A stretch of 48,306 bases of DNA from Candidatus Iainarchaeum sp. (GTDB lineage: Archaea; B1Sed10-29; WALL01). The stretch lies in contig JAFGGZ010000054.1 of the NCBI GenBank assembly GCA_016939415.1, positions 1 to 48,306 on the forward strand, in the 5' to 3' direction. The number at the start of each line of letters is the position of its first letter. Position 1 is the stretch's first letter. The notes beneath the pieces were generated by a model, which saw only the letters and a program-made list of their open reading frames with translations, had not been told where the DNA came from and searched no databases. Below, in pieces: positions 12,109 through 37,575 of the stretch. A program made the position numbers and the translations under genes.

Positions 12109-12816
12109 GTGGTAGCCATGCAGCTGACGCCGCTCTTCCTCACCTTCATCCTGACCACCATCCACCTGGTCGGCGAGCGATACTCGTACTACATAGAACG
12201 CATGCACCTGGACTTCCTGAGCTTCGGCGCAGGCGTTTTCATGACATTCCTGTTCATGGAGGCCCTGCCCCAACTGATTACGGGCATGAGCATCATAGGC
12301 TACAACGTGTTCCTCCTCGCGCTCATAGGATTCACGCTGTACCACATATCAGAAAAGTACCTGTACCAGCACATGAAAACAAAGGACGCGCTCATCAACG
12401 ACCTCGACAAGCTGCACGTACTTGGATTCATCATGAACCACTTCCTCATAGGGTTCTCGCTCGTCCTCATGTTCGAAGTGCCTCAAGGACCGCCATGGCT
12501 CGGCTACTTCGTGTTTCTCCCCTTCGTGCTCCACACCCTCGCATCATCCATATCCCTGAGGCACATACACGAGTACTACCGAAGCGGGAGAACAGAGAAA
12601 GTCCTCCTGGCCTGCTCGCCAGTCTTCGGCGCAGTTGCTGCGTCAGTGCTCAGGCTGCAGCACGCTCACTTCTACATCGCGCTGTGTATCGCGTTCGGAG
12701 CGCTGCTGTACATAGTGATCAGGGACATAATACCCAAGGAAGAGAAGGGAAACCCATTGTACTTCATGCTGGGAATGACCCTGTCCCTCGCGATAGTGGC
12801 GCTCACTCGGCTTTGA
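12109..12816 (+). CDS. polytopic membrane protein, divergent ZIP-like
   Basis: 235 aa with about 8 TM helices. The positions matching the ZIP metal motifs read NHFLIGF and LHTLASS, instead of HNFxDG and HExPxE as in the two canonical ZIPs of this window. Confidence 0.45.
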   Translation: MVAMQLTPLFLTFILTTIHLVGERYSYYIERMHLDFLSFGAGVFMTFLFMEALPQLITGMSIIGYNVFLLALIGFTLYHISEKYLYQHMKTKDALINDLDKLHVLGFIMNHFLIGFSLVLMFEVPQGPPWLGYFVFLPFVLHTLASSISLRHIHEYYRSGRTEKVLLACSPVFGAVAASVLRLQHAHFYIALCIAFGALLYIVIRDIIPKEEKGNPLYFMLGMTLSLAIVALTRL

Positions 12817-13741
12817 GCTCCTTCTTCTTGTTCTTCACGAACGTGCCGACATTGATGCCTGCGATAGTGCCCTCGCCGACAGCGACAGCGACCTGCAGCA
12901 CGCCCCCAGTCACGTCGCCGGCAGCGAACACGCCCGCACAGCACGTCTGCTGATCCTCACCGACCTTGACGAAGCCGTACTGGTCCAATTCAACGCCCGC
13001 ATCCTGCGCCAGCTTTGCAGTGGGGACGACGCCCACATAGATGAACACGCCGCTCACAGCGATCTCGGACAGCTCGTTCGTCTTCACGTTCTTCAGAACC
13101 ATTGACGACACAGAATCCTTGCCCCTCACCTCTTCGAGCACGCTGTCCCAGTGAATCGCCACGTTCTGTTTCGCAGCCAGCTCGCCGCCAAGCCGTTCCT
13201 CGCCGCGGAACTCGTCCCTGCGGTGCACGATGTGCACCCTGCTGCACACGTCAATCAGATACAAAGCAGCGCTCAGCGCGGAATTGCCTCCGCCAACAAC
13301 CGCCACTTCCTTCCCGCGGAAGAACAATGCATCGCACGTCGCGCAATAGGAAACGCCTTTGCCAGCGAACGCGTCCTCGCCCTTCGCACCCAGCTTCCTG
13401 TGCGCCGCCCCAGTGGCGATGACCACGCCGTAGCAGTGATACTCAGCGCTCTCGGTCCGGACGACGAACGAGCCATCATCCTTCTTCTGCAGCGCGTTGA
13501 CTGTCTCGTACTTCAACTCAGCGCCGAAGCGGTCGGCTTGCTTGGCCATGCGCTCACCGAGAGCCATGCCACCCACTTTCTCGACTCCCGGGTAGTTCTC
13601 TATCTCGTTGGTTGCGGCCATCTGGCCGCCGGCCACTCCCGACTCCAGGATCAGGGTATTTAGTGCGCGCCGAGCCGCGTAAATCGCTGCGGATAAGCCT
13701 GCCGGACCGGCTCCGATCACCACGACGTCGTATTCCTGCAT
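12803..13741 (-). CDS. trxB: thioredoxin-disulfide reductase
   Basis: YDVVVIGAGPAGLSAAIYAAR, redox-active CATCD, second Rossmann VAVVGGGNSA, C-terminal GVFAAGDV. Start set at MQEYDVV. Confidence 0.85.
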   Translation of the reverse strand: MQEYDVVVIGAGPAGLSAAIYAARRALNTLILESGVAGGQMAATNEIENYPGVEKVGGMALGERMAKQADRFGAELKYETVNALQKKDDGSFVVRTESAEYHCYGVVIATGAAHRKLGAKGEDAFAGKGVSYCATCDALFFRGKEVAVVGGGNSALSAALYLIDVCSRVHIVHRRDEFRGEERLGGELAAKQNVAIHWDSVLEEVRGKDSVSSMVLKNVKTNELSEIAVSGVFIYVGVVPTAKLAQDAGVELDQYGFVKVGEDQQTCCAGVFAAGDVTGGVLQVAVAVGEGTIAGINVGTFVKNKKKELKAE

Positions 13742-13795
13742 TCGATCACCGATACACATATAAACGCACTCGGTATAAAAAACGTGGTGATGTCA

Positions 13796-19992: not shown

Positions 19993-20358
19993 TTAGGGTT
20001 TTTCAATACCTGTCGGCTTGCGCACGCCCTCGCGCTTCCACGAATCCCCTGCGTACCGCGGGATCAAGTGGACGTGCACGTGAAAGATGCCCTGGCCGGC
20101 AGCGCGGCCGTTGTTCACGCCGACATTGAATCCTGCAGGAGCATACTCCCTGTCAATCAATTGCTTCGCTTCAACAAGCAGCGAGTAAATGCCACGCACT
20201 TCATCGCCGGAAAGCTCGAAGAAGTCCGTAACATGCCGCTTGGGAATGACGAGCATGTGCCCCCGAGTCACAGGGTTTATATCACGCACAGCGAACGCCA
20301 AGTCATTCTCCAAAACAACTTCTTCGTCCAGATCACAGAACGGACACGCCACGCGCAT
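19993..20358 (-). CDS. HIT family (histidine triad) protein
   Basis: CPFCD zinc motif and HVHVHLIPR histidine triad. Start MRVACPFC overlaps the ZIP stop as TGATG. Confidence 0.85.
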   Translation of the reverse strand: MRVACPFCDLDEEVVLENDLAFAVRDINPVTRGHMLVIPKRHVTDFFELSGDEVRGIYSLLVEAKQLIDREYAPAGFNVGVNNGRAAGQGIFHVHVHLIPRYAGDSWKREGVRKPTGIEKP

Positions 20359-21110
20359 CAACCCCCGATGACGGCGCGCATGACCCACATGAAGGCAATG
20401 CCAGCCAGGAAAAGGACCATGATAGGCAAGGATTTGCGCAACTCCTTCTCCTTGTGCAGCTCGGGGATCAAGTCAGACGAAGCAATGTAGATGAAGCCTC
20501 CCGCAGCGAACGGCAGGAGCATGAACTCGATCCCGCTCACAATCCCGGAAGAATAGTAACCCACCAGCGCCCCGACCACTGCAGTCAAAGCAGACAAGAA
20601 ATTGAACACGAGCGCCTTCCGCAAGGAAAAGCCGCCGTACACGAGGACGCCGAAGTCACCCAGCTCCTGCGGGACCTCGTGCGCGACGACAGCGAACGTG
20701 GTTGCCACGCCGAGAGGGATGCTCGTCAAATAACTGGCTGCGATTATCAAGCCGTCTATGAAATTGTGCACGCTGTCGCCCACAAGGCTGAGGTAAGTGA
20801 ACGCGTGCACGTCACACGCCTCCTTGTGACAATGACGCCAATGGATAATTTTCTCAAGAAAGAAGAAAAAGACAATGCCGCCTATCACCAGCAGCGACAC
20901 AGAGTCCGACGAAGAAGCGTCAAGGGACTCGGGAATCAGGTGCAGGAAAGCGCCTCCCAGCAACGACCCGCTCGCGAATGCGACAAGCCACAGCAAGACA
21001 CTCCGGATAGTGGCCTTTCCCAGAACCAGCGTGGTGACGCCGACAAGCGACAGCGCACTCACAGCAAAAACGCTGATGAGTATGTACGATAAGGTCTCCA
21101 TGAGAATCAA
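20358..21110 (-). CDS. ZIP family metal (zinc) transporter
   Basis: HNFIDGLIIAASY and HEVPQELGDFGVLV motifs, 8 TM helices, His-rich loop (HWRHCHKEACDVH). Confidence 0.85.
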   Translation of the reverse strand: MILMETLSYILISVFAVSALSLVGVTTLVLGKATIRSVLLWLVAFASGSLLGGAFLHLIPESLDASSSDSVSLLVIGGIVFFFFLEKIIHWRHCHKEACDVHAFTYLSLVGDSVHNFIDGLIIAASYLTSIPLGVATTFAVVAHEVPQELGDFGVLVYGGFSLRKALVFNFLSALTAVVGALVGYYSSGIVSGIEFMLLPFAAGGFIYIASSDLIPELHKEKELRKSLPIMVLFLAGIAFMWVMRAVIGG

Positions 21111-28691: not shown

Positions 28692-28889
28692 TCACTCGAA
28701 GAGGAACAGGCGCTCAATGCTCGCGCCCAGCTCTTTCGCGATTTTGTAAGCCAGTTGCAGCGAGGGGTTATACTTGCCTTTCTCGAGGAAGATGATTGTC
28801 TGCCGCGTCACGCCCACCCTGTCAGCCAGCTCTTCCTGGGTGAGGCCCTTCTTCTGCCGAAATGCCTTGATCCGCGTCCTGAATGCCAT
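28692..28889 (-). CDS. XRE-family HTH transcriptional regulator (65 aa)
   Basis: [49 protein letters not shown]. The ATG overlaps the upstream stop as TGATG. Confidence 0.85.
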
Positions 28890-29254
28890 CAGTCGCCCTT
28901 CTGCTTGTAGTAAGCGTAAGAGCCTAGGTACGAGATCGTGCCCAGGGCGAACACGGGCATGATTGTGGTTGAGACAGGCCAGACGGCTCCGGTGCCTTCT
29001 GCGTATATGACCAGGAAGGCTATGGTGAACATCATTGCCACGAAGCCGTTCCGCGCAGAGCGGTTGTACACTGACCAGAGCCGCTCGTCTTCGTACGCCT
29101 TTGTCTTGCGCATCCCCCATAGCTTGACGAGGCTTGATGCGACTGCCACGGCCAGCAGTGCGGGTATTATGCTATACGCCCTGACATACACAGCCCAACC
29201 CAAGATCACTGCCAAGAAAACGATTTTGAGAGCGAACCTCCTTGTCTTTTCCAT
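28889..29254 (-). CDS. membrane protein partner of the small XRE regulator (DUF2178-like topology)
   Basis: 121 aa with four TM helices. GGTGGTG SD-like site before the ATG at 29254. Confidence 0.55.
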
Positions 29255-29352
29255 AACACCACCATGTAAAACATTTCTAACGTAATATATTTTTAACATT
29301 CATGTATTAAAGGCTTTCGGGCGGAACAGATAAATACACACGCGCCGAAGTG

Positions 29353-29542: not shown

Positions 29543-30601
29543 TTACACGCCCAGTATTACCCACAAGCCAAGCGCAAGCATCACCAACCCTGCGACAAGG
29601 TGCAGGTGCCTTATGCGCTCATCCTTCCACTTCTGCATCTCTTCAATGCGCTTGTACCCAAAGTAAAATAATCCATTAATGACAAGGAGTGGGACGACGA
29701 ACACCACGTTGTAGTAGAGCAGGAGCGGGATTGCCGCATCACGCGTTGACTTCTCAGCCAAAAGACCGAGAATGAACAAGTACGGCCCGCCCGTGCACGG
29801 CAGCTCGAACAAACAGACAACGAAACCCGCCAGGAAAGCGCCGATGGGAGTCGTGGCCTTCTCAAGTATCGCCTTCAACCTCGGCCGCCAGCAGCGCGGA
29901 ATTTCCATGACGAAGCCACCACAGCCATACCAGAAGAAATCCTTTATGTTGGCAAGGCCTATCAGAATCGCAAGTATGCCGACCGCCTGGTAGAAAATAT
30001 AAGACAGCCCGGAGACTTTTATTGCCGAGAACAGCCCCAACCCGAAGAGGAAATAAGCGATATAAAGAGCCGCTGTGAAAGCGAGGCCCGCGGTCAACGC
30101 CCGTTTTCGACCGCCTGCCGCGAGCAAAGCCGCCAGAAGGATCAGCAGGACAGCCATCGCACACGGATTGATCGAGTCGACGAGCGCCGCCCCCGTGAGC
30201 AGCCACAACGATACCGTTTCCCTCTCGAGTTCAGATATCTCGCCTGCAAGACCTGAGCTAACCATGCGAGCGTCAAGCGATGGACACTCCTCCCTGAGCT
30301 GGGACTCCAGCTGATTGATTATCGGCGAGTCCCCAACAAGGTAGTAATCCCCTGTGAAGGCTACGGGCACCCCCCTCATAGCCATTGGCACGCTATAGGC
30401 ATTGAAGTACTGCCGGAGCAGCGCCAGATTCGTGGAATTGTCATAAACCTCGAAGCGGTGCACCTCAACGCCTTTCGCCTCGAGCATGTCGATTGTTGAC
30501 TCCGCCCTCGCGCAGTGAGGACACCCATTTCCGTAGAAGAAATACGCGCATTGCGCTGACGCAAGCGACAGCAAAAGCAGGGATATCAATGCCTTCCTCA
30601 T
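29543..30601 (-). CDS. secreted thioredoxin-like domain fused to CcdA/DsbD-type thiol:disulfide transporter
   Basis: Signal peptide, CPHC redox motif, then a 6-TM CcdA core with DSINPCAM and ELPCTGGPYL. Confidence 0.8.
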   Translation of the reverse strand: MRKALISLLLLSLASAQCAYFFYGNGCPHCARAESTIDMLEAKGVEVHRFEVYDNSTNLALLRQYFNAYSVPMAMRGVPVAFTGDYYLVGDSPIINQLESQLREECPSLDARMVSSGLAGEISELERETVSLWLLTGAALVDSINPCAMAVLLILLAALLAAGGRKRALTAGLAFTAALYIAYFLFGLGLFSAIKVSGLSYIFYQAVGILAILIGLANIKDFFWYGCGGFVMEIPRCWRPRLKAILEKATTPIGAFLAGFVVCLFELPCTGGPYLFILGLLAEKSTRDAAIPLLLYYNVVFVVPLLVINGLFYFGYKRIEEMQKWKDERIRHLHLVAGLVMLALGLWVILGV

Positions 30602-31455
30602 CTCATAACCCCTTCGAGTATCTTCCGGAAAACCGGTTCAAGCCCTGGCTTACGGACGATCACCGGCTTCAACAAGACAAGCGCCTCAACAAAAGCCATG
30701 TCATAGGGTATTTCTGCGAGGACATTTAAGTTCTTTTTTGTCGCGAAAGAGCGGATTTCTTCAGTCATCCTCGGATTCAAATCCGCTTTATTGATAACAA
30801 TACCTGCGGGTATACCGAAGTGCTCCACGACGCCAAGCGCACGGCTCAAGTCCCACAAAGCAGCGGGCGTCGGCTCGGTCACTGCCACAACAAAATCACA
30901 GCCCTGCACAGATGCAACAACAGGGCAGCCGATGCCGGCAGCGCAATCGATGACGAGCACATCAGCCCCAATGCTCTCGGCAAGCCGCTTCACCTCGAAA
31001 ACAACTTTCCCGGAACTCGCTTCACCCATCTTCAACTGCGCAGAAACAACGGGAAAGCCGTACGGCGTAACAGCCGTGCCGATGGTCGCATTCTGCACTG
31101 GCTTGAGCACAATCGCCTCCGAAGGGCACGCGATTACACACGCTCCGCATCCCTCACAAAGAGCGTCGTTGAACACAGGCAACCCATTAACCATCTTAAC
31201 GGCGCCGAAAACACACACTTCCGCGCACCTTCCACAGCCAGTGCACTTGCCCGGAACCAAGCGGGCTTTTTCGCTCACAGAAAGGCTTTTTTCCTCATCG
31301 AGCTGCTTAACGCCCAAAACCAGCGCCAGGTTGGCGGCATCCACATCGCAATCAGCAGCAACGACGCTATGATCACGCGCAAGCAGGACAGCCAAAGAAG
31401 CAGCTATACTACTTTTGCCCACACCTCCCTTACCTGACAAAACCGCCAGTTTCAC
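30598..31455 (-). CDS. MinD/ParA-superfamily P-loop ATPase with inserted 2x[4Fe-4S] ferredoxin domain
   Basis: SGKGGVGKSS deviant Walker A, plus CTGCGRCAEVC and CEGCGACVIACP. Confidence 0.85.
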   Translation of the reverse strand: MKLAVLSGKGGVGKSSIAASLAVLLARDHSVVAADCDVDAANLALVLGVKQLDEEKSLSVSEKARLVPGKCTGCGRCAEVCVFGAVKMVNGLPVFNDALCEGCGACVIACPSEAIVLKPVQNATIGTAVTPYGFPVVSAQLKMGEASSGKVVFEVKRLAESIGADVLVIDCAAGIGCPVVASVQGCDFVVAVTEPTPAALWDLSRALGVVEHFGIPAGIVINKADLNPRMTEEIRSFATKKNLNVLAEIPYDMAFVEALVLLKPVIVRKPGLEPVFRKILEGVMR

Positions 31456-32210
31456 AATTCAGGCCTCCTCTTCCTCGTTTCTTGTAGATCCAGCGGGACA
31501 GCATCCTGACTCTTGGCATCATACACCATTACGGTATTAAGGCCAGCGAACTCTGTCTTTATCCGATCCATCTCCGCGCGCCCAAGTGGTTTGCAACCGC
31601 ACGGCCTCAGAGGGGTGTCCAAGAAGATGTCATTGGGTTTTATCTGTCTCGCAAGCTCTGCCATATCTCCAGCACAGTCTTTGTTCTTGTCGATGAACAT
31701 CATCTGAAGGTCAAACTCCCCGCGAAACTCGTTTCTCATCGCCTTGATGCCGTCAACAATCTCCTCAAAACGTATTCCAGCAACAGGCCGGTTTATCTCC
31801 TCGAACAACTCCTGACCAGGCGCATCAAGCTTTGCGTGTATAACATCGAAATACATCAAGCTCTCCCTGACCTCAGGCAGGTAAAGGAGAGAGGAATTGG
31901 TTAGTATCGCCATAGGCACGCTAATGACATGCTTCACAACAGCAGCAATCTTGTCGATATTGCTCGCAAGCGTGGGCTCACCCATCCCAGAAAACGTGAC
32001 AATGTCCGGCGCCGCTCTCGCGAAGGCTGATTCCAGCTCCTCCCCGACGACTGCTGCATCAACAAACCTTTTCCTTTCGGTGGTCTTCAAGCGTGTCGGG
32101 CCGAGCTGGCAGTAAACACAATCAAAAGAACAGACGTTGATGCATACTGGATCTACGCCCAAAGATCGTCCGAGCCGCCAAGAAGGAACGGGCCCGTAAA
32201 CCGTTTTCAC
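31452..32210 (-). CDS. radical SAM protein
   Basis: YGPVPSWRLGRSLGV...CSFDCVYCQ contains the CxxxCxxC cluster motif. Also has a GMGEPTL SAM-binding-like motif. Confidence 0.8.
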   Translation of the reverse strand: MKTVYGPVPSWRLGRSLGVDPVCINVCSFDCVYCQLGPTRLKTTERKRFVDAAVVGEELESAFARAAPDIVTFSGMGEPTLASNIDKIAAVVKHVISVPMAILTNSSLLYLPEVRESLMYFDVIHAKLDAPGQELFEEINRPVAGIRFEEIVDGIKAMRNEFRGEFDLQMMFIDKNKDCAGDMAELARQIKPNDIFLDTPLRPCGCKPLGRAEMDRIKTEFAGLNTVMVYDAKSQDAVPLDLQETRKRRPEL

Positions 32211-33055
32211 TTCATTCCCTCCACACGTTCAGCCAGAGATATTATTGCCGGCACCTTCACTGGCTCTCCAAGCGAATAGGCCTTGAACACCTCTTCGCTG
32301 TAAGGTATTTCCACCGCCACTTCAGCGCCAAAGCGCTCGGCAATCCGCTTGATGCCATACGGCGGCGCAATGCCAGCGCGGTTGAGCACGACTTTTGCGG
32401 GCACGTCAAGCTTTCCGAGCAACTCCAGTATCAGAGAAAGGTCATGTTCACCCAAGGGGGTCGGCTCGGTCACTGCGAAAGCCAGCTTAACGCCTTCCAG
32501 AGCGGATATCACATCACAGTGAGTCCCAGCCGCGGTGTCGATTACCACGTAATCGAATCCGCTCTCTATCTTTTTGAGGTGACGCTTCAAGGCATTCACC
32601 ACGAACTCAGAAACCACTTCAGAAACCTTCAACTCCCCGCTGAGAAGACGCACGCCTCTCCCCTCACCCTCAAAAATGAACCCGATTTCCTTGCTCGCCT
32701 TGCCAATCGCACCCACCGGGCATGCGAGCATGCACGCGCCGCACCCGCTGCACTGCTCCTCGATGAACACAGGATGATCACCACGGCGATGAATAACCGC
32801 ACTCATCTTGCATACCTCAGCGCACCTGCCGCAGCGGGTGCAGAGATTCTTGTCGAGCACGGGGATGGTTTTGGTGACTGTGTCGACCTTACTGCGCTTT
32901 ATCGCTAAGATCAAGTGGTCGTCAGGACAGTCCACGTCCGCATCCACCAGCAGCACCTTATGTCTTTTAGCGAGCTCGAAAGCCAGCGCAGTCGCTACAG
33001 TGGACTTCCCCGTCCCCCCCTTGCCGCCGGTAACCGCGATCCTCAATGCCCACAC
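32207..33055 (-). CDS. MinD/ParA-superfamily P-loop ATPase with inserted 2x[4Fe-4S] ferredoxin domain (second copy)
   Basis: TGGKGGTGKST, plus CTRCGRCAEVC and CSGCGACMLACP. Confidence 0.85.
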   Translation of the reverse strand: MWALRIAVTGGKGGTGKSTVATALAFELAKRHKVLLVDADVDCPDDHLILAIKRSKVDTVTKTIPVLDKNLCTRCGRCAEVCKMSAVIHRRGDHPVFIEEQCSGCGACMLACPVGAIGKASKEIGFIFEGEGRGVRLLSGELKVSEVVSEFVVNALKRHLKKIESGFDYVVIDTAAGTHCDVISALEGVKLAFAVTEPTPLGEHDLSLILELLGKLDVPAKVVLNRAGIAPPYGIKRIAERFGAEVAVEIPYSEEVFKAYSLGEPVKVPAIISLAERVEGMK

Positions 33056-33378
33056 CCTTCTTCCAAACTTTTCAAAGACGGGAGATTACTAATGACCTCC
33101 CTCACCGTCGAGTACGGGCCGGTCAAGGCTTTCAGACCGAGTTCGGAAAGCGCCTCGATCGCCCTGGATCCGATGCCGTGAACAAACACAGCGGCAACTC
33201 CCTCCCGTACCAAAACATCAACAGGTGTGCACCTCTCATGCTCGTGCTCCTCGCACTCGAAAAATGCCGAGCTTTTGTCGTTGGTGTCGTACACGAAGAA
33301 GAAACTCACGTGACCGAAGTGGCTGCTCACCCTCGACTCCAAGCCATTTTTTTCAGTGACTGGGATTGCGATCTTCAC
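33043..33378 (-). CDS. NifB/NifX-type (dinitrogenase FeMo-cofactor-binding fold) protein
   Basis: MKIAIPV......V..HFGH...F.VYD and V.AV...GIG..A...L...G pattern. 111 aa. Confidence 0.75.
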   Translation of the reverse strand: MKIAIPVTEKNGLESRVSSHFGHVSFFFVYDTNDKSSAFFECEEHEHERCTPVDVLVREGVAAVFVHGIGSRAIEALSELGLKALTGPYSTVREVISNLPSLKSLEEGCGH

Positions 33379-33387
33379 GTTAGCGCC

Positions 33388-33735
33388 TCACTCAATTATT
33401 TTACTTAGTTCACCAGCAGCAAGCTTTTGTACATTCTCTTCAACATTCCCGCTCACAGCAGCATACATTTCCACGCCGAACTGATTAAGCACTGAGGACG
33501 CCCTCGGACCGATTGCACCAGAGATCACTGCATCAACCTTCTCATTGACGATCAACTCTGCAGCAGCGATTCCGGCGCCACCGCGCTGGTCGATGGCCGG
33601 GTTCTTGACTGCTTTGACGAAACTGATTCCCTCACCGCTTACCTCCATTATGACGAAATAGGGGCAGCGACCGAAAACATTGCTCACTTCAGAATCTTTT
33701 CCCTCTCCTGTTGCTGTTACTGCTACTCTCATCAA
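33388..33735 (-). CDS. NifB/NifX-type protein (second copy)
   Basis: RVAV...G...S.V...FGRCPYFVI and VDAVISGAIGPRA pattern. 115 aa. Confidence 0.75.
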   Translation of the reverse strand: MMRVAVTATGEGKDSEVSNVFGRCPYFVIMEVSGEGISFVKAVKNPAIDQRGGAGIAAAELIVNEKVDAVISGAIGPRASSVLNQFGVEMYAAVSGNVEENVQKLAAGELSKIIE

Positions 33736-33736
33736 A

Positions 33737-34177
33737 TCACCTCACCATTTTTGCTCCGCACTTCGGACACTTCATCTCATAGCACGGCACGCCGCGCTGG
33801 TGCGGGGATTTAGTGCCGCACTTCGGGCAGACGCACTCGCCGCCAGGGCCGAGCGCCCTCCCGCTCATCCTGCCTCTTCCTCCAATCATATAATCACCTC
33901 CTTCGATGCGGATTGCCTTCCCGCTGATCAATGCATCGCTTACCTTATGCCGGGCTGAACCGAGAAGACGGTTGAAGGTCGGCTGCGAAATCCTCATCTT
34001 CTCTGCTGCTTTCTCCTGGGGCATGTTCTCCGAGTCCGCGAGCCGCAGCGCTTCATACTCATCAACAGTCAGGACTACTTCGTCCAGATCGCTGATCGGC
34101 ACGCCGCGCGGCTTGAAGTACGTTATCCCCGGTTCGCTTCCGACCCACCGCCTCTTCCTCGGTCGTGGCATACTCAA
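33737..34177 (-). CDS. DUF134 (UPF0251) DNA-binding protein with C-terminal double CxxC zinc ribbon
   Basis: [10 protein letters not shown]...YFKPRG...[13 protein letters not shown]...Q.EAA..M.ISQPTF.R.L, then CPKCG...CPKCG. Confidence 0.8.
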
Positions 34178-34437
34178 TCATGCTCTTCGAAAGCCTTGTC
34201 CTGCTCGGCATCGTTCTTCCTGATCCATTCCATCAGCATGGCTGCGTGCTCCTTCTCCTCATCCCGGTTATGCTCAAGGATTCTCTTCAGCCCTGCATCC
34301 GAAACATTCTCAACCCGTTCCTGATACCAGTTTATCGCTTCCAGTTCCTCTACCAGCGATTGCCTCGCTCGTTCCAGATCCTTGGTCTCCTGCGAAAGGT
34401 TTTCTCTTCCTTCATGCTCTCCTGTCATTTCACTCAC
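34174..34437 (-). CDS. encapsulated-ferritin-like (EncFtn-type) small ferritin-like protein
   Basis: [13 protein letters not shown] and [21 protein letters not shown] match the EncFtn ferroxidase-centre segments as I recall them. 87 aa with no obvious C-terminal targeting peptide. Confidence 0.7.
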
Positions 34438-34717
34438 TCAATTCCTTCAGCTTTTTTGCTATACCCTGTCTTGCGGCTTCAAGCTCTTCAAGCTCTGCTT
34501 CCATGACCTTCTTTTCCTCTTCAAGTATACTTACTTGCTGGTCCTTGGTAAGCTCCACCTGTCGCGCTGGCGCAAAACCCAAAAATCGTCTTCCGCGACC
34601 CATTCCACGGCCAAAGCCCATTCCGAAAGCTACTGAGCTGAAGCCCGGGCAATTGCCCAAACCTCTTCCGGTTCTAGGTCCATGACCCATGGGTCCGGTT
34701 CCATCTCCATACGGCAT
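34430..34717 (-). CDS. DUF5320-like protein
   Basis: MPYGDGTGPMGHGPRTGRGLGNCPG N-terminus plus a C-terminal coiled coil. AGAGGTGA SD upstream. First gene of the operon. Confidence 0.7.
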   Translation of the reverse strand: MPYGDGTGPMGHGPRTGRGLGNCPGFSSVAFGMGFGRGMGRGRRFLGFAPARQVELTKDQQVSILEEEKKVMEAELEELEAARQGIAKKLKELSE

Positions 34718-34795
34718 TTTTACATCACCTCTTTTTGTTTATAGAGTTATGAATAATTATTCACTAACTACTATTTAAAGGTAACGGATTATGAT
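34718..34795 (-). promoter_or_regulatory. promoter region of the nine-gene operon with a perfect 14-nt palindrome TGAATAATTATTCA (34750-34763)
   Basis: On the minus strand the order is CTTTAAATAG TATA-like box, palindrome, CTATAAAC, AGAGGTGA, ATG. Confidence 0.45.
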
Positions 34796-35527
34796 TCAAA
34801 ACCCCGTTATGATGGACGAGAGAGCAGCGTAAGAGACCATGCCAAACAACAGGCCGAGCGACGCGAAATCCATGCCGCCATACCTCTGGGCGAGTGGCAG
34901 GAGCTCATCCAGGGAAACGAAGATCATGGCCCCCGCCGCAAAAGCGAGCATAAGCGGGTTCAATGCAGGGACCCACGCGAACAAGGCCAGACCCATCAAA
35001 GCCCCCGCAGGCTCTGCGAGAGCAGAGAGAAACGCAAGCCAAAACAGTTCCTTCTTTTTCTTTGCCATAACGAGCGGTATCCCTAGCGCGAATTCTTCAG
35101 GGATGTTGTGCAGGCCTATGCCAATAGCAACAGCAGTGCCTGCAAGGGGATTGACCATGAACGCTGTGGCCATGGCGAATCCTTCAGGGAAGTCGTGGAT
35201 TATGAGACCGAGCGCCACCATATGCCCGGTCTTGAGTTCTCTGGCTTTTTTCGCGGACTCTTTGATGAAGTGTATGTGGGGGTAGAGGAAGTCGAATGAC
35301 CAGACCACTAGGAAGCCAGTGGCGAACACGGCCAGGACGAGCAGCTCGTCCGCTTCGGATATGGCTAATGGGAATAGCTCGAAGAATGAGATCGAGATCA
35401 TGACGCCCGAAGAGAACCCTATGCCGACGCTGGCCAGCTTCTTGGTTTTAGTGCAGCACGTGGCGAGGAGCACGCCAACGAAGGTAGTGAGTCCGGACAG
35501 CAACGCTATGAAGACTATTTCTAGCAC
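34796..35527 (-). CDS. ZIP family metal transporter
   Basis: HDFPEGFAMATAF and HNIPEEFALGIPL motifs. GTG start, 243 aa. Confidence 0.85.
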   Translation of the reverse strand: MLEIVFIALLSGLTTFVGVLLATCCTKTKKLASVGIGFSSGVMISISFFELFPLAISEADELLVLAVFATGFLVVWSFDFLYPHIHFIKESAKKARELKTGHMVALGLIIHDFPEGFAMATAFMVNPLAGTAVAIGIGLHNIPEEFALGIPLVMAKKKKELFWLAFLSALAEPAGALMGLALFAWVPALNPLMLAFAAGAMIFVSLDELLPLAQRYGGMDFASLGLLFGMVSYAALSSIITGF

Positions 35528-35584: not shown

Positions 35585-36178
35585 TCAGCCAAAGAGCTTC
35601 TCAAGCTTTTTCTTGTTTTCCTGCGGTCCCTTGAACAGGAGCACGTCGCCTGCGTTCACGACCTCGTCCGCGCTCAGCAGGTACTTCCACTCCTTTTTCT
35701 TGATGGCTATCAAGTGCATGCCTGTCGCGCTCACGACGTCCAGCGCCTGGAACGGCTTGCCGACTGATGCTGACTCTGGCTTGACCTCGACCTTTACGAT
35801 GGCCGCCCTGCCCTGCGACACCACTTCACGGAGGAGGGAGTGCTTCTTCACGCCTTTCCGCACCATGGCCGCTATGTGCCTCGCGCTGTTCGCTATGTCT
35901 TCCGTGTTCTTGGCGACTTCGAGCACTGCGACCATGCCTTCTGCGTCTGCTGGCGGCACCCTGCTGAGTATGGTCTTCAGGTTGACTTCCCGCTCGAGCC
36001 TCCGCACGCTCTCGTACAACGACTCCACGTCCTCGGCGAGTGCTTTGTCGTCTGTCAGCAGCGAGCTGTAAGCCAAGTCGACCATGAGGCTGGACAGGTC
36101 GCGCATGCTTATCAGGTAGTCGAGCACGCCCCTGTCGTTCTCAAGGACTTTTTCCGCGAATTTTTTGTTCATATACAA
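35585..36178 (-). CDS. PhoU-like helical domain + TrkA-C/RCK_C-type ligand-binding domain regulatory protein
   Basis: N-terminal helical repeats and a C-terminal VKPESASVGKPFQALDV...GMHLIAIKK...AGDVLLFKG. Directly downstream (3') of the MgtE-like pair on the minus strand. Confidence 0.6.
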   Translation of the reverse strand: MYMNKKFAEKVLENDRGVLDYLISMRDLSSLMVDLAYSSLLTDDKALAEDVESLYESVRRLEREVNLKTILSRVPPADAEGMVAVLEVAKNTEDIANSARHIAAMVRKGVKKHSLLREVVSQGRAAIVKVEVKPESASVGKPFQALDVVSATGMHLIAIKKKEWKYLLSADEVVNAGDVLLFKGPQENKKKLEKLFG

Positions 36179-36187
36179 TCACCCTTT

Positions 36188-36742
36188 TCACAAACTTATT
36201 ACGAATCCTACGAATGAAATGAATATCATGATGCCGACCACGTCGCTGAACGTGGTGAGGAACGGCGCTTCGAAGTTGTCGGGGTCGAGCCGCGCCATCG
36301 TGGTCGCAACGCTGACTGCGACTGCTATGGCAAGGTCAAGCGTCACCACAACGACTGCTGAGGCCATCACCGCGGCGAGGAACTTCAACAGCGGCGGCAT
36401 GGCCAGGCCCAGCACGGCGGAGAAGGCGAATGCTAGCAGCGCCATCACGATGAAGAAGAGGATTGTCGTGACGTACGTGCCGGCGACATTGTCCCTGAAC
36501 CTCTTGCTGCGCAGCGACGCCCTGCCAGTGCCGAGGTGGAGCGACGTGGTGAGTCTGGAGGCGAAGCTGCTGGATATGTCGCCGCACGAGTCGATGAATG
36601 CCGGTATCATGAGCAGCACGCCGGGGTACGTGGCCAGGAACGCGGCGTTCGTCTCGAGGGTGAGTCCTGCGAACATGCTGAGGAAGGTAAACGCAACGAG
36701 TGGTGGCGCGCTCTCGAGGATGATGCGCTTCGCAGAATACAT
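36188..36742 (-). CDS. MgtE-like divalent cation transporter, membrane domain only (half-size, copy 2)
   Basis: Start MYSAKRII overlaps the upstream stop (TGATG). PAFIDSCGDISS and LDPDNFEAPFLTTFSDVVG resemble the MgtE TM-domain motifs. Confidence 0.7.
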   Translation of the reverse strand: MYSAKRIILESAPPLVAFTFLSMFAGLTLETNAAFLATYPGVLLMIPAFIDSCGDISSSFASRLTTSLHLGTGRASLRSKRFRDNVAGTYVTTILFFIVMALLAFAFSAVLGLAMPPLLKFLAAVMASAVVVVTLDLAIAVAVSVATTMARLDPDNFEAPFLTTFSDVVGIMIFISFVGFVISL

Positions 36743-37314
36743 CAGCCAGCCACCCCCAGGTAAGCGAGGACGGACAAGTACACTGCCACGACGACGATGA
36801 CGTCGCCAGTCGTGGTGAGGGTGGGGATGACGACGCTGGACGGGTCGAGCCTGTGCTTTCGCGCGTAGAACGACAGCCACACAGTGAAGAGGGATTGGAT
36901 TGCGGCGACTGTTGTGAGCGACAGCAGGGAGATGAACGCGAAGCCCCATAATGGCACGTGCGGGATGCCCGCTGCCTCTCTTACGACGTACCCAGAGAGC
37001 GCTGCGACGACCGCGACTATGATCGCTACTGCGACAGTGCCTGCGACGTTTTCGCTGACTTCTTTGTTCTGCCGTGACTTGATGACGCCGAGGTGCATGG
37101 CAGTGGATATCCGCGCTGCGAGAGCGCTGTCCAAGGCATTGCGGACATTCATGAGCGCTGGCACGAGCACGAACACGCCGGGGACGAGGGGGAGTATTTC
37201 AAGGTAGTGGCTGAGGAAGTAGCCGCCGAACAGCTCGCCGATGCCGGATAGTATCATGAAGGGAAGTGATTGCGAGATGATTTTCCTGAAACTCCAGTAC
37301 GGCTCCATTTCCAT
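36742..37314 (-). CDS. MgtE-like divalent cation transporter, membrane domain only (half-size, copy 1)
   Basis: Start MEMEPYW. PALMNVRNALDS and LDPSSVVIPTLTTTGDVI motifs, 5 TM helices. Confidence 0.7.
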   Translation of the reverse strand: MEMEPYWSFRKIISQSLPFMILSGIGELFGGYFLSHYLEILPLVPGVFVLVPALMNVRNALDSALAARISTAMHLGVIKSRQNKEVSENVAGTVAVAIIVAVVAALSGYVVREAAGIPHVPLWGFAFISLLSLTTVAAIQSLFTVWLSFYARKHRLDPSSVVIPTLTTTGDVIVVVAVYLSVLAYLGVAG

Positions 37315-37575
37315 GAAAACAAAACGAGCAGGGTTTAAAAGCCTTGTACTCGCGTGGTGGAACGCTGCTCTCTCTCGTTGAGCTGGCAAGTAACGAAGCG
37401 CTTGATTGGGGTCTGGAGGACGTTGCTTTGCACATCCGTATGTTATTATATGCGCGTTCGCATAAGTTTCGCTCATGAATCATACGGAAAGAAATGCGGC
37501 GACCCGGAGGGCCGTGGCGAGAACGCTCATCAAAGCCCACAAACAGGCAAAAGCGCCGTGACCCGGCTTTGCGCG

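Follow-up and report, generated by a model that had tools for sequence, protein, structure and literature searches.

The orange protein (ORP) cluster, reportedly first described by Fievet et al. in 2011 (J Bacteriol 193:3207), is known from Desulfovibrio and other strict anaerobes. Here we compare with it an operon of nine co-directional minus-strand open reading frames (ORFs) at positions 29543–34717 of a contig of 48,306 nucleotides from Candidatus Iainarchaeum sp. (JAFGGZ010000054.1, assembly GCA_016939415.1); this whole 48-kb stretch is called the window below. In D. vulgaris Hildenborough the orp genes form two divergent operons (orp3-orp4-orp5 / orpR / orp7-orp8-orp9), both driven by sigma-54 and the redox-sensing activator OrpR (PMC6345978, PMC8359166). 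Orp3 and Orp4 each contain two [4Fe-4S] ferredoxin motifs and co-purify with Orp8, which like Orp5 is a NifX-like protein and whose homologues hold a Mo-Cu-S cluster non-covalently, and Orp9 (MrpORP), a fusion of an Mrp/NBP35 carrier with a NifX-like domain, passes iron-sulfur clusters to Orp3/Orp4 in vitro (PMC6345978). A NifX-like domain is also found in IssA of Pyrococcus furiosus, where it is followed by a tail that is cationic, rich in Gly and aromatic residues, and has one Cys; IssA forms thioferrate nanoparticles, and MTH1175 is a tail-less member of the IssA clade (PMC5524996). NifB consists of a radical S-adenosylmethionine (SAM) half and a NifX-like half (PMC8351635).

On balance, we think it probable that the window operon is a DPANN version of an anaerobe-specific ORP/IssA-type cluster, one that stores iron and sulfide and hands them on as inorganic iron-sulfur species. 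What is observed is homology, gene linkage, the A/B paralogy of the ATPases, the conservation of catalytic residues, and a candidate operator that is conserved in sequence and placement; from these we infer every functional step. By its sequence, the core of the operon (two MinD/ferredoxin ATPases, two NifX-like proteins, and a DUF134 protein) corresponds to the ORP cluster, and the locus is of a known kind, that of the ORP cluster and IssA. What is distinctive is an encapsulin-free EncFtn from a clade found inside such clusters, a terminal Trx-CcdA fusion, and the fusion of DUF134 to a six-Cys module.

Forty-nine window ORFs were scanned with Pfam, and the operon proteins were also scanned with NCBIfam. 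In gene order the operon encodes a DUF5320 protein, an EncFtn-like ferritin-like protein, a DUF134 helix-turn-helix protein with a six-Cys module, NifX-like A, NifX-like B, ATPase A, a minimal radical SAM enzyme, ATPase B, and a Trx-CcdA fusion; all nine family assignments made in the original prediction were reproduced. Taken with longest-ORF starts, the junctions are an overlap of 8 nt, an overlap of 4 nt, a gap of 1 nt, a gap of 9 nt, an overlap of 13 nt, and then three overlaps of 4 nt. Homologues indicate that the EncFtn gene probably starts at the ATG at 34428 (84 aa), which would turn the DUF5320/EncFtn junction into a 1-nt gap. The genes thus lie where they had been predicted, in one tightly packed layout with overlaps of 4–13 nt and gaps of 1–9 nt; an upper overlap of 26 nt given at the same time was not reproduced, the largest being 13 nt. 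The layout is that of a single predicted operon, and the packing of its genes suggests that they would be co-transcribed. A single contig of the source sediment metagenome spans the whole stretch with zero differences. None of the 49 ORFs scanned with Pfam is an encapsulin, nif (nifHDK/nifEN), NifB-type, molybdate/tungstate transporter, or pterin gene, which bears out the earlier view that the locus does not serve nitrogen fixation. Rfam and tRNA scans of the window gave no matches.

The likeness to the ORP cluster is strongest in the ATPases and the NifX-like proteins. ATPase A (32207–33055, 282 aa; Pfam CbiA, ParA, Fer4) and ATPase B (30598–31455, 285 aa; Pfam CbiA/ParA, Fer4) are paralogous MinD/ParA-type P-loop proteins, each with an inserted 2x[4Fe-4S] ferredoxin domain; Orp3 and Orp4 are likewise a paralogous pair of P-loop ATPases with two [4Fe-4S] ferredoxin motifs each. 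The deviant Walker A motif is GKGGTGKS in A and GKGGVGKS in B, and the CxxCxxCxxxC motifs are found at residues 72 and 102 in A and at residues 71 and 100 in B. In a tree of MinD-ferredoxin proteins, two deep paralogue clades are seen (39+39 sequences, support 99/99), and each locus contributes one sequence to either clade; the first window ATPase falls in clade A and the second in clade B. One A and one B per locus fits an obligate heterodimer, as Orp3 and Orp4 co-purify (PMC6345978). Such an Orp3/Orp4-like heterodimer may couple ATP to electron transfer or to the loading and release of clusters.

NifX-like A (33388–33735, 115 aa; Pfam PF02579 Nitro_FeMo-Co, E 1e-23) is of the MTH1175/ORP type. 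Among PDB sequences it matches MTH1175 (1EO1) at E 2.4e-23 and, over its full length, the D. gigas orange protein (2WFB) at E 3e-9. NifX-like B (33043–33378, 111 aa; PF02579, E 1e-18) is of the TM1816/PH0822 type, with PDB matches to 1T3V/1O13 and 2YX6 at E ~1e-12, and is rich in His and Cys (SSHFGH..., ECEEHEHERC, ...GCGH); the placement of these motifs resembles that of the CXHFGHCE and CDH motifs in MrpORP's Di-Nase domain (PMC6345978). Both are single-domain NifX-like ("Di-Nase") proteins, as in the ORP cluster, and neither carries a C-terminal tail. We propose that A and B would act as carriers, holding iron-sulfur or metal-sulfide species. A further likeness is that the cluster is restricted to anaerobes. 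The DUF134 protein may also have a counterpart in Desulfovibrio, where orp7 presumably encodes a member of this family.

The differences from the Desulfovibrio cluster lie in what surrounds this core. The window operon has no Mrp/NBP35::NifX carrier of the Orp9 type: the NF041136 model matches only parts of the NifX-like and ATPase proteins, at 35–56 bits against a cut-off of 450. There is one operon here against two divergent ones in Desulfovibrio, and a predicted archaeal TATA-type promoter with a TGAAY-N4-RTTCA palindrome stands in place of sigma-54 and OrpR; no OrpR-like gene is seen among the genes flanking the operon. DUF5320, the EncFtn-like protein, the radical SAM enzyme, Trx-CcdA, and the six-Cys module on DUF134 are not described for the Desulfovibrio cluster. 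A literature search found no report tying DUF5320, this radical SAM family, EncFtn, or CcdA to ORP clusters, and absence there is no proof.

The same families co-localise in many other genomes, and for that reason the layout goes beyond chance. Scanning one genome per species with a radical SAM alignment gave 80 loci (44%–56% identity) from DPANN archaea, Methanophagales, Halobacteriota, Thermoplasmatota, Chloroflexota, Omnitrophota, Planctomycetota, Saganbacteria, Armatimonadota, and others. Family profiles bootstrapped from the nine window proteins were applied to six-frame ORFs within 10 kb of the radical SAM gene; these are longest ORFs, and some of their starts are over-extended. NifX-like proteins were found in 53 of the 80 loci, MinD-ferredoxin proteins in 45, DUF134-model matches in 43 (the helix-turn-helix part in 24, the six-Cys module in 36), Mrp/NBP35-like proteins in 43, and DUF5320 in 42; Trx-CcdA-like and EncFtn-like proteins were found in nine and three, respectively. 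Every NifX-like, MinD-ferredoxin, DUF134-model, and DUF5320 match shares the strand of the radical SAM gene, with a few exceptions among the Mrp-like and Trx-CcdA-like matches. A NifX-like gene together with at least one other core family occurs on the strand of the radical SAM gene in 48/80 loci. The 21 loci without any core family are mostly short contigs or belong to one Thermoplasmata clade. The window's arrangement of a radical SAM gene between two MinD-ferredoxin genes recurs in loci L001, L022, L023, L055, and L063.

A second set, built from the 80 closest metagenomic relatives of the EncFtn-like protein (56%–86% identity), gives a similar picture: 52 loci have at least one core family and 40 have at least two, and where at least 3 kb is available on both sides, core genes are present in 14 of 21. 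Their genes often run DUF5320-EncFtn-DUF134(+six-Cys)-NifX-NifX-MinDFd-TrxCcdA, as they do in L112, L104, L115, and L118. For Trx-CcdA, DUF134 lies within 3 kb in three of three long DPANN contigs (L086, L087, L088), and in L087 the genes DUF5320-DUF134-TrxCcdA overlap. Each of the nine families recurs as a partner; in no other locus examined was the exact set of nine genes met. Co-localisation across archaea and bacteria had been proposed as a check on the original prediction, and it extends well beyond this genome (48/80 radical SAM loci, 52/80 EncFtn loci).

In a survey of accessory genes in 99 related clusters we found MBL-fold hydrolases (31 clusters), class I SAM methyltransferases (31), IscU (25), pyridine-nucleotide disulfide oxidoreductases (19), TrmO-like proteins (17), Fur (14), thioredoxin (12), DsrE (7), and peroxiredoxin (5). 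It is because iron, iron-sulfur, and thiol-redox functions dominate among accessory genes that we read the system as one of storage and trafficking. Many related clusters also contain CDF::NifX fusions, in which the NifX-like domain is at the C-terminus of the transporter (CDF, ZT_dimer, and Nitro_FeMo-Co domains). A CDF protein with an MTH1175-like C-terminal signature has been reported from a candidate Fur-regulated operon (PMC1874648). The fusions were located at L001:5118-6395, L006:4357-5658, L007:2009-3193, L008:4822-6150, L034:8189-9499, L068:12638-13915, and L081:10731-12011. Directly upstream of the window operon, as a separate unit, lies a ZIP-family divalent-metal transporter gene (34796–35527, minus strand; Pfam PF02535, E 2e-25). 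ZIP homologues are found in 7/84 and 5/80 related loci and also in L086, and in L101 and L090 they stand directly upstream of DUF5320/EncFtn, as in the window. L101 holds the closest EncFtn relative (86% identity), and there the ZIP gene upstream of DUF5320-EncFtn-DUF134 (L101:6675-7210) is in two fragments, perhaps through a frameshift or an assembly error.

The comparison with IssA turns on the first gene of the operon. The DUF5320 protein (34430–34717, 95 aa; Pfam PF17253, E 9e-22) has two unlike halves: residues 1–52 have a pI of 11.9, with 16 Gly (31% Gly), seven Arg, six aromatic residues, five Pro, and one Cys, and residues 53–95 form an acidic, helical half with a pI of 4.7. The N-terminal half thus has the make-up of the IssA tail: cationic, rich in Gly, Arg, and aromatic residues, and with a single Cys. 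The two systems also share the IPR003731 NifX-like domain, NifX-like A being closest to MTH1175 among PDB sequences. In IssA the tail belongs to the NifX-like protein, whereas here the tail-like segment is a separate DUF5320 protein with an acidic, coiled-coil-like half; in related loci NifX::DUF5320 fusions occur, with DUF5320 fused to NifX-like domains in L004. Two further differences are that no partner ATPases, radical SAM enzyme, or regulator are described with IssA (PMC5524996), and that thioferrate nanoparticles are known for IssA, whereas the window operon is known from sequence alone. We suggest that DUF5320 may serve as a scaffold, supplying in trans the cationic Gly/Arg/aromatic segment that would bind anionic thioferrate as the IssA tail does, with its helical half oligomerising.

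The second gene (34174–34437, 87 aa; Pfam PF22277, E 4e-32) encodes a protein that matches solved EncFtn structures at E 1e-20 to 2e-21, that of R. rubrum EncFtn (5DA5) at E 1e-20. Like R. rubrum EncFtn and NE0167 (3K6C), it has the two-helix ferritin-like core with all ferroxidase-centre residues: E31, Y38, E61, and H64 align to those of 5DA5, and all four are invariant among aligned homologues. It differs from them in ending at residue 87 with ...FEEHD, without the C-terminal encapsulin-targeting tail, and no encapsulin gene is found among the window ORFs scanned. It matches TIGR04535 only over profile positions 2–80 of 114 (93 bits against a cut-off of 125). Nearly all EncFtn relatives in ORP-type contexts also end in EHD, and in most related loci this clade lies inside ORP-type clusters, beside DUF5320 and DUF134. 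A second EncFtn-like clade (L153, L156, L160-L168; 94–118 aa) has a longer C-terminus, ...KELKDYLFT..PIAH, and is almost never found beside ORP-type genes. Within the proposed store, the tail-less EncFtn would bind Fe2+ and oxidise it at the di-iron site, feeding Fe3+ to the store or detoxifying iron, without a shell.

A more specific version, which we put forward tentatively and consider rather unlikely, would make DUF5320, the NifX-like proteins, and the "EHD" EncFtn together a shell-free iron-sulfur store of strict anaerobes, genome-reduced DPANN archaea among them. EncFtn would oxidise Fe2+, an anionic thioferrate-like polymer nucleated on the NifX-like domains would be wrapped by the cationic Gly/Arg segments that DUF5320 and the six-Cys module carry, the A/B ATPases and the radical SAM enzyme would mobilise it, and the Cys module of DUF134 would sense filling at the TGAAY-N4-RTTCA site. 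If this were so, there would be a second partner system for EncFtn-type ferroxidases, one that does not depend on encapsulin, and a function for the ORP complex.

The radical SAM enzyme (31452–32210, 252 aa; Pfam PF04055, E 2e-14) lies between the two ATPase genes and carries the motif CSFDCVYC at residues 27–34. Across 30 homologues the sole invariant Cys residues are C27, C31, and C34, and an N-terminal YGPxxSWR...SLGxD is likewise invariant; with only the three SAM-cluster Cys conserved, the enzyme would seem to have no ligands for additional clusters. It has more than 7,700 database matches. No NCBIfam model came near its cut-off, and a PDB sequence search gave no match at E 0.01. Its AlphaFold2 (AF2) model (predicted local distance difference test, pLDDT, 95.7) matches TYW1, viperins, NifB, SuiB, and PFL-AE about equally in Foldseek (template modelling, TM, scores of 0.62–0.70, 11%–19% identity), and because these matches to generic radical SAM cores are about equal, no subfamily can be assigned. 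The Joint Genome Institute (JGI) annotates its relatives as COG0731 and names homologues TYW1; we rejected that name, as TIGR03972 reaches only 22 bits against a cut-off of 318, over residues 66–161 only. The tree of the enzyme tracks taxonomy, and the in-cluster state occurs in every major clade, which argues that the linkage is old. In one Thermoplasmata clade (L003, L014, L016, L017, L024, L026, L040) the gene stands alone, with no ORP-type genes in its flanks, and the L003 copy adjoins nrdR-nrdD-nrdG.

This enzyme is at the centre of an alternative that we regard as unlikely, in which the operon would be a split-NifB-like line: a complex cluster would be made or altered by the radical SAM enzyme, possibly together with other SAM-using enzymes, then carried by the NifX-like proteins and placed in a target enzyme by the MinD-ferredoxin ATPases. 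As in NifB, where the two are halves of one protein (PMC8351635), a radical SAM core is encoded here together with NifX-like carriers, and with NifH-class (SIMIBI) ATPases as well; NifB structures are among the top Foldseek matches (7BI7, 6Y1X; TM 0.65), the linkage of the radical SAM gene to the cluster is ancestral, related clusters repeatedly contain SAM methyltransferase and TrmO-like genes, and the Desulfovibrio orange protein does hold an unusual Mo-Cu-S cluster (PMC6345978). However, the enzyme has no extra-cluster ligands beyond its three invariant Cys, it gives no match to the NifB model TIGR01290, and its fold score for NifB is no better than for TYW1, viperin, or PFL-AE; on these grounds a NifB-like assignment was rejected. 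Nor is there an nifHDK/EN gene among the window ORFs scanned, or a conserved candidate target enzyme in the clusters. Recurrent neighbours are instead general iron and iron-sulfur genes (IscU, Fur, Mrp, ZIP, CDF), and the cluster is present in tiny genomes of DPANN archaea and of the candidate phyla radiation (CPR), with few enzymes to serve. The case for the dedicated line for a metallocluster or cofactor that the original prediction had proposed is weakened: general storage or trafficking of iron-sulfur material is likelier than a special cofactor, given the three invariant Cys and the recurrence of IscU, Fur, Mrp/NBP35, thioredoxin, ZIP, and CDF::NifX. In a storage and trafficking system, the radical SAM enzyme may act on the cargo, or be reduced or loaded by the ATPases that its gene separates.

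The putative regulatory part of the operon comprises its DUF134 gene (33737–34177, 146 aa; Pfam PF02001, E 4e-27) and the 78-nt spacer upstream of DUF5320. In the AF2 model of the protein (pLDDT 89.5), the three-helix part (residues ~38–85) can be superposed on both the DeoR DNA-binding domain and sigma-70 region 4, at a root-mean-square deviation of 0.6–0.9 Å over 40–50 residues, with weak E-values; a fold search of the PDB gave no whole-protein match, the helix-turn-helix part alone being matched. The C-terminal module (residues ~99–146) combines Gly/Arg with six Cys and one His in the pattern GRGRM..GPGG-CxCPxCG-x5-H-x3-GxPC-x4-CPxCG. The "double zinc ribbon" read here at first is thus present, as CxCPxCG...CPxCG. 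In 36 of the 80 radical-SAM-picked loci, from archaea and bacteria, this module is a separate gene of 50–77 aa; such small proteins matched the DUF134 profile solely through the C-terminal module of the window protein, and within this set the fusion to DUF134 is seen only in the window and in L001, L008, L025, and L033. The separate six-Cys proteins have MP(R/G)GDGTGP..GRG ahead of the module's GPGG and often begin MPRGDGTGP..GRG, as does DUF5320 (L006:4304-4462, L007:1843-2001, L012:8097-8267, L034:7674-7829, L036:3969-4121, and ~30 more). In Chloroflexota DUF134 proteins the C-terminal zinc ribbon is of another kind, RCxxxGHEWxVPFE...CPxC, and a tail rich in Gly, Arg, and Trp comes after it (L019:2930-3418, L031:1052-1525, L043:3406-3876, L066:3216-3692, and others), which suggests that DUF134 regulators pair the helix-turn-helix part with interchangeable Cys modules.

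Three elements can be read in the spacer. The TATA-box-like element TTTAAATA (34772–34779, minus strand) lies 55 nt upstream of the first ATG, and by the archaeal promoter consensus it probably acts as a TATA box. Eight nucleotides downstream of it is a perfect 14-bp palindrome of the TGAAY-N4-RTTCA family, TGAATAATTATTCA (34750–34763, strandless), followed by a Shine-Dalgarno-like AGGTGAT (34724–34730, minus strand) ahead of the DUF5320 start codon. With the palindrome only 8 nt from the TATA-like box, a protein bound there would block initiation. The promoter palindrome is the single match to TGAAY-N4-RTTCA in the 48-kb window, and in many archaeal loci such palindromes stand just 5' of operons led by DUF134 or DUF5320. 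There are 23 sites in 84 radical-SAM-picked loci, at least 14 of them within 250 nt upstream of cluster genes. In the 80 independent EncFtn-picked loci, 22 of 24 sites fall within 250 nt upstream of DUF5320, EncFtn, or DUF134 starts, zones that make up 12.9% of bases (binomial p 6e-18). DUF134 is taken as the protein that binds the site because it is the sole DNA-binding protein travelling with the clusters; the evidence for a regulator is the local helix-turn-helix match to the DeoR domain and sigma-70 region 4, weak in E-value, together with the conserved palindrome upstream of DUF134 and DUF5320 operons. DUF134 is thus the candidate binder of TGAATAATTATTCA and a candidate autoregulator, and the DUF134::six-Cys protein may switch the operon by metal or cluster status.

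These sites also raise the prospect, which we consider quite improbable, that what unites the locus is a DUF134 regulon, with a metal- or redox-sensing regulator set over separate modules for iron detoxification (EncFtn), the ORP complex, and thiol reduction (Trx-CcdA). The cargo behind DUF134/DUF5320 does vary: DUF5320-DUF134-TrxCcdA stands alone in L087, DUF5320-EncFtn-DUF134 has no adjacent ORP core in L101 and L114, and ZnuABC lies upstream in L088. Several loci have separate operators before DUF5320 and before EncFtn, and Trx-CcdA and EncFtn each occur in a minority of clusters. Against independent modules, the 4-nt overlaps across the window operon suggest stoichiometric co-production, the gene order is identical in unrelated metagenomes (e.g., L112, L104), and the parts are tied to one another by a Gly/Arg motif that occurs in DUF5320, in the six-Cys module, and in NifX tails.

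The last gene of the operon (29543–30601, 352 aa) encodes a signal peptide, a thioredoxin/glutaredoxin-like domain with CPHC, and a six-helix CcdA/DsbD-type membrane domain. Its direct domain matches are weak (SfLAP and a weak Glutaredoxin match in Pfam, a weak DsbD match in NCBIfam). Its homologues (55%–73% identity) are common in DPANN archaea, are named CcdA/glutaredoxin, and carry PF02683/PF13386. There is one N-terminal hydrophobic segment and six further ones. Across 28 homologues C27, H29, C30, C106, C147, and C269 are invariant, with C147 in an NPC motif in helix 1 of the membrane domain and C269 in ELPCTGGPY in helix 4. The six transmembrane helices, the invariant Cys in the NPC (helix 1) and LPC (helix 4) motifs, and the outward-facing CxxC domain are shared with CcdA/DsbD; unlike CcdA, the fusion does not lie beside cytochrome c maturation genes, and in DPANN archaea it travels with DUF134, DUF5320, and genes of the ORP type. 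It may pass reducing equivalents across the membrane to the outward-facing CPHC domain for extracytoplasmic thiol or sulfur redox chemistry, a role that would parallel that of the genes for soluble thioredoxin and disulfide reductase in the bacterial clusters. At 12803–13759 on the minus strand, 16 kb from the operon, lies the gene for a thioredoxin-reductase-like flavoprotein (Pyr_redox_2, 318 aa), which could be the cytoplasmic electron source for Trx-CcdA.

Several points weigh against storage and trafficking of iron and sulfide. The Orp proteins' role was described as "still unclear" in 2021 and tied to cell morphology (PMC8359166), and the cluster bound by the Desulfovibrio orange protein is of the Mo-Cu-S kind, not iron-sulfur (PMC6345978). 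The window operon lacks both the Mrp/NBP35 carrier (Orp9) and IscU, and neither of its NifX-like proteins has an IssA-type tail. A ferroxidase in a strict anaerobe leaves the oxidant unexplained. The radical SAM step is without assigned chemistry, and recurrent SAM-using neighbours (methyltransferases in 31 loci, TrmO-like proteins in 17) fit cofactor chemistry equally well. Trx-CcdA (9/80) and EncFtn (3/80) are each missing from most related clusters. Finally, one RNA run of the same study gave zero contigs over the operon, so that co-transcription rests on gene packing. The unclear role also matches what the original prediction had stated, that this core recurs in anaerobes without an assigned function; the ORP complex has a name and has been studied in part, yet no product has been defined for it, and the NifX-like and MinD-ferredoxin proteins have therefore not been drawn into a pathway that has one.

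The Mo-Cu-S cluster invites a further reading, the handling or detoxification of Mo/W-Cu-sulfide in the manner of the [S2MoS2CuS2MoS2] cluster of the Desulfovibrio orange protein, which we find very improbable. NifX-like A and the D. gigas orange protein are homologous, Orp8 homologues carry their Mo-Cu cluster non-covalently (PMC6345978), and a ModA-like binding protein is among the products of the Acidithiobacillus operon that includes the CDF with the MTH1175-like C-terminal signature (PMC1874648). However, NifX-like A is much closer to MTH1175 (E 2e-23) than to the orange protein (3e-9), neither the window ORFs scanned nor the top 20 accessory families include a molybdate/tungstate transporter or a pterin gene, and the neighbours ZIP, Fur, IscU, and EncFtn point to iron and zinc. 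Barely credible, in our view, is a role of the MinD-like ATPases in cell division or positioning with the metal centres as redox sensors, a role of the kind hypothesised for the ORP complex of Desulfovibrio: an orpR mutant has morphological defects, MrpORP localises to the pole of the cell, and there is a likeness between ORP proteins and Mrp/ParA/MinD ATPases (PMC8359166, PMC6345978, PMC4672049), but the phenotype is indirect and its authors themselves describe the role as unclear (PMC8359166), the 99 clusters show no recurrent division genes, and the cluster is conserved over bacteria and archaea, groups that differ in division machinery.

If the storage of iron and sulfide is the true function, it would show how many anaerobes bank both without ferritin cages, and EncFtn-like proteins would have a second cellular context. 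One lineage of the cluster has recruited an EncFtn ferroxidase without encapsulin, together with a membrane exporter of thiol reductant. The ORP-type cluster is spread over anaerobic bacteria and archaea, including some with very small genomes, and the window and its relatives make the question of ORP function concrete and testable. DUF134, an uncharacterised regulator family, gains a recognisable candidate operator.

Other genes around the operon were considered as parts of the system. The upstream MgtE pair, the PhoU/TrkA-C gene, and the downstream DUF6442 gene were rejected, having no homologue in 164 related loci. The first of these lie at 35585–37476 on the minus strand, where a PhoU and TrkA-C protein comes before a pair of half-size membrane proteins of the MgtE type, with an overlap of 208 nt between the longest ORFs of the pair. 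At 28692–29299 (minus strand), 243 nt downstream of the operon, the DUF6442 membrane protein forms a pair, absent from the related loci, with an HTH_3 (Xre-type) regulator (longest ORFs overlapping by 232 nt). A second ZIP transporter (20358–21110, minus strand; PF02535, E 2e-45) is a distant paralogue of the one adjacent to the operon. That the host is an archaeon is indicated by the promoter, by genes of the window for diphthamide synthase and for a phosphopantothenate synthetase of archaeal type (PPS_PS, PF02006), and by the best named relatives of the operon proteins, which are from Diapherotrites/Iainarchaeota and other DPANN archaea.

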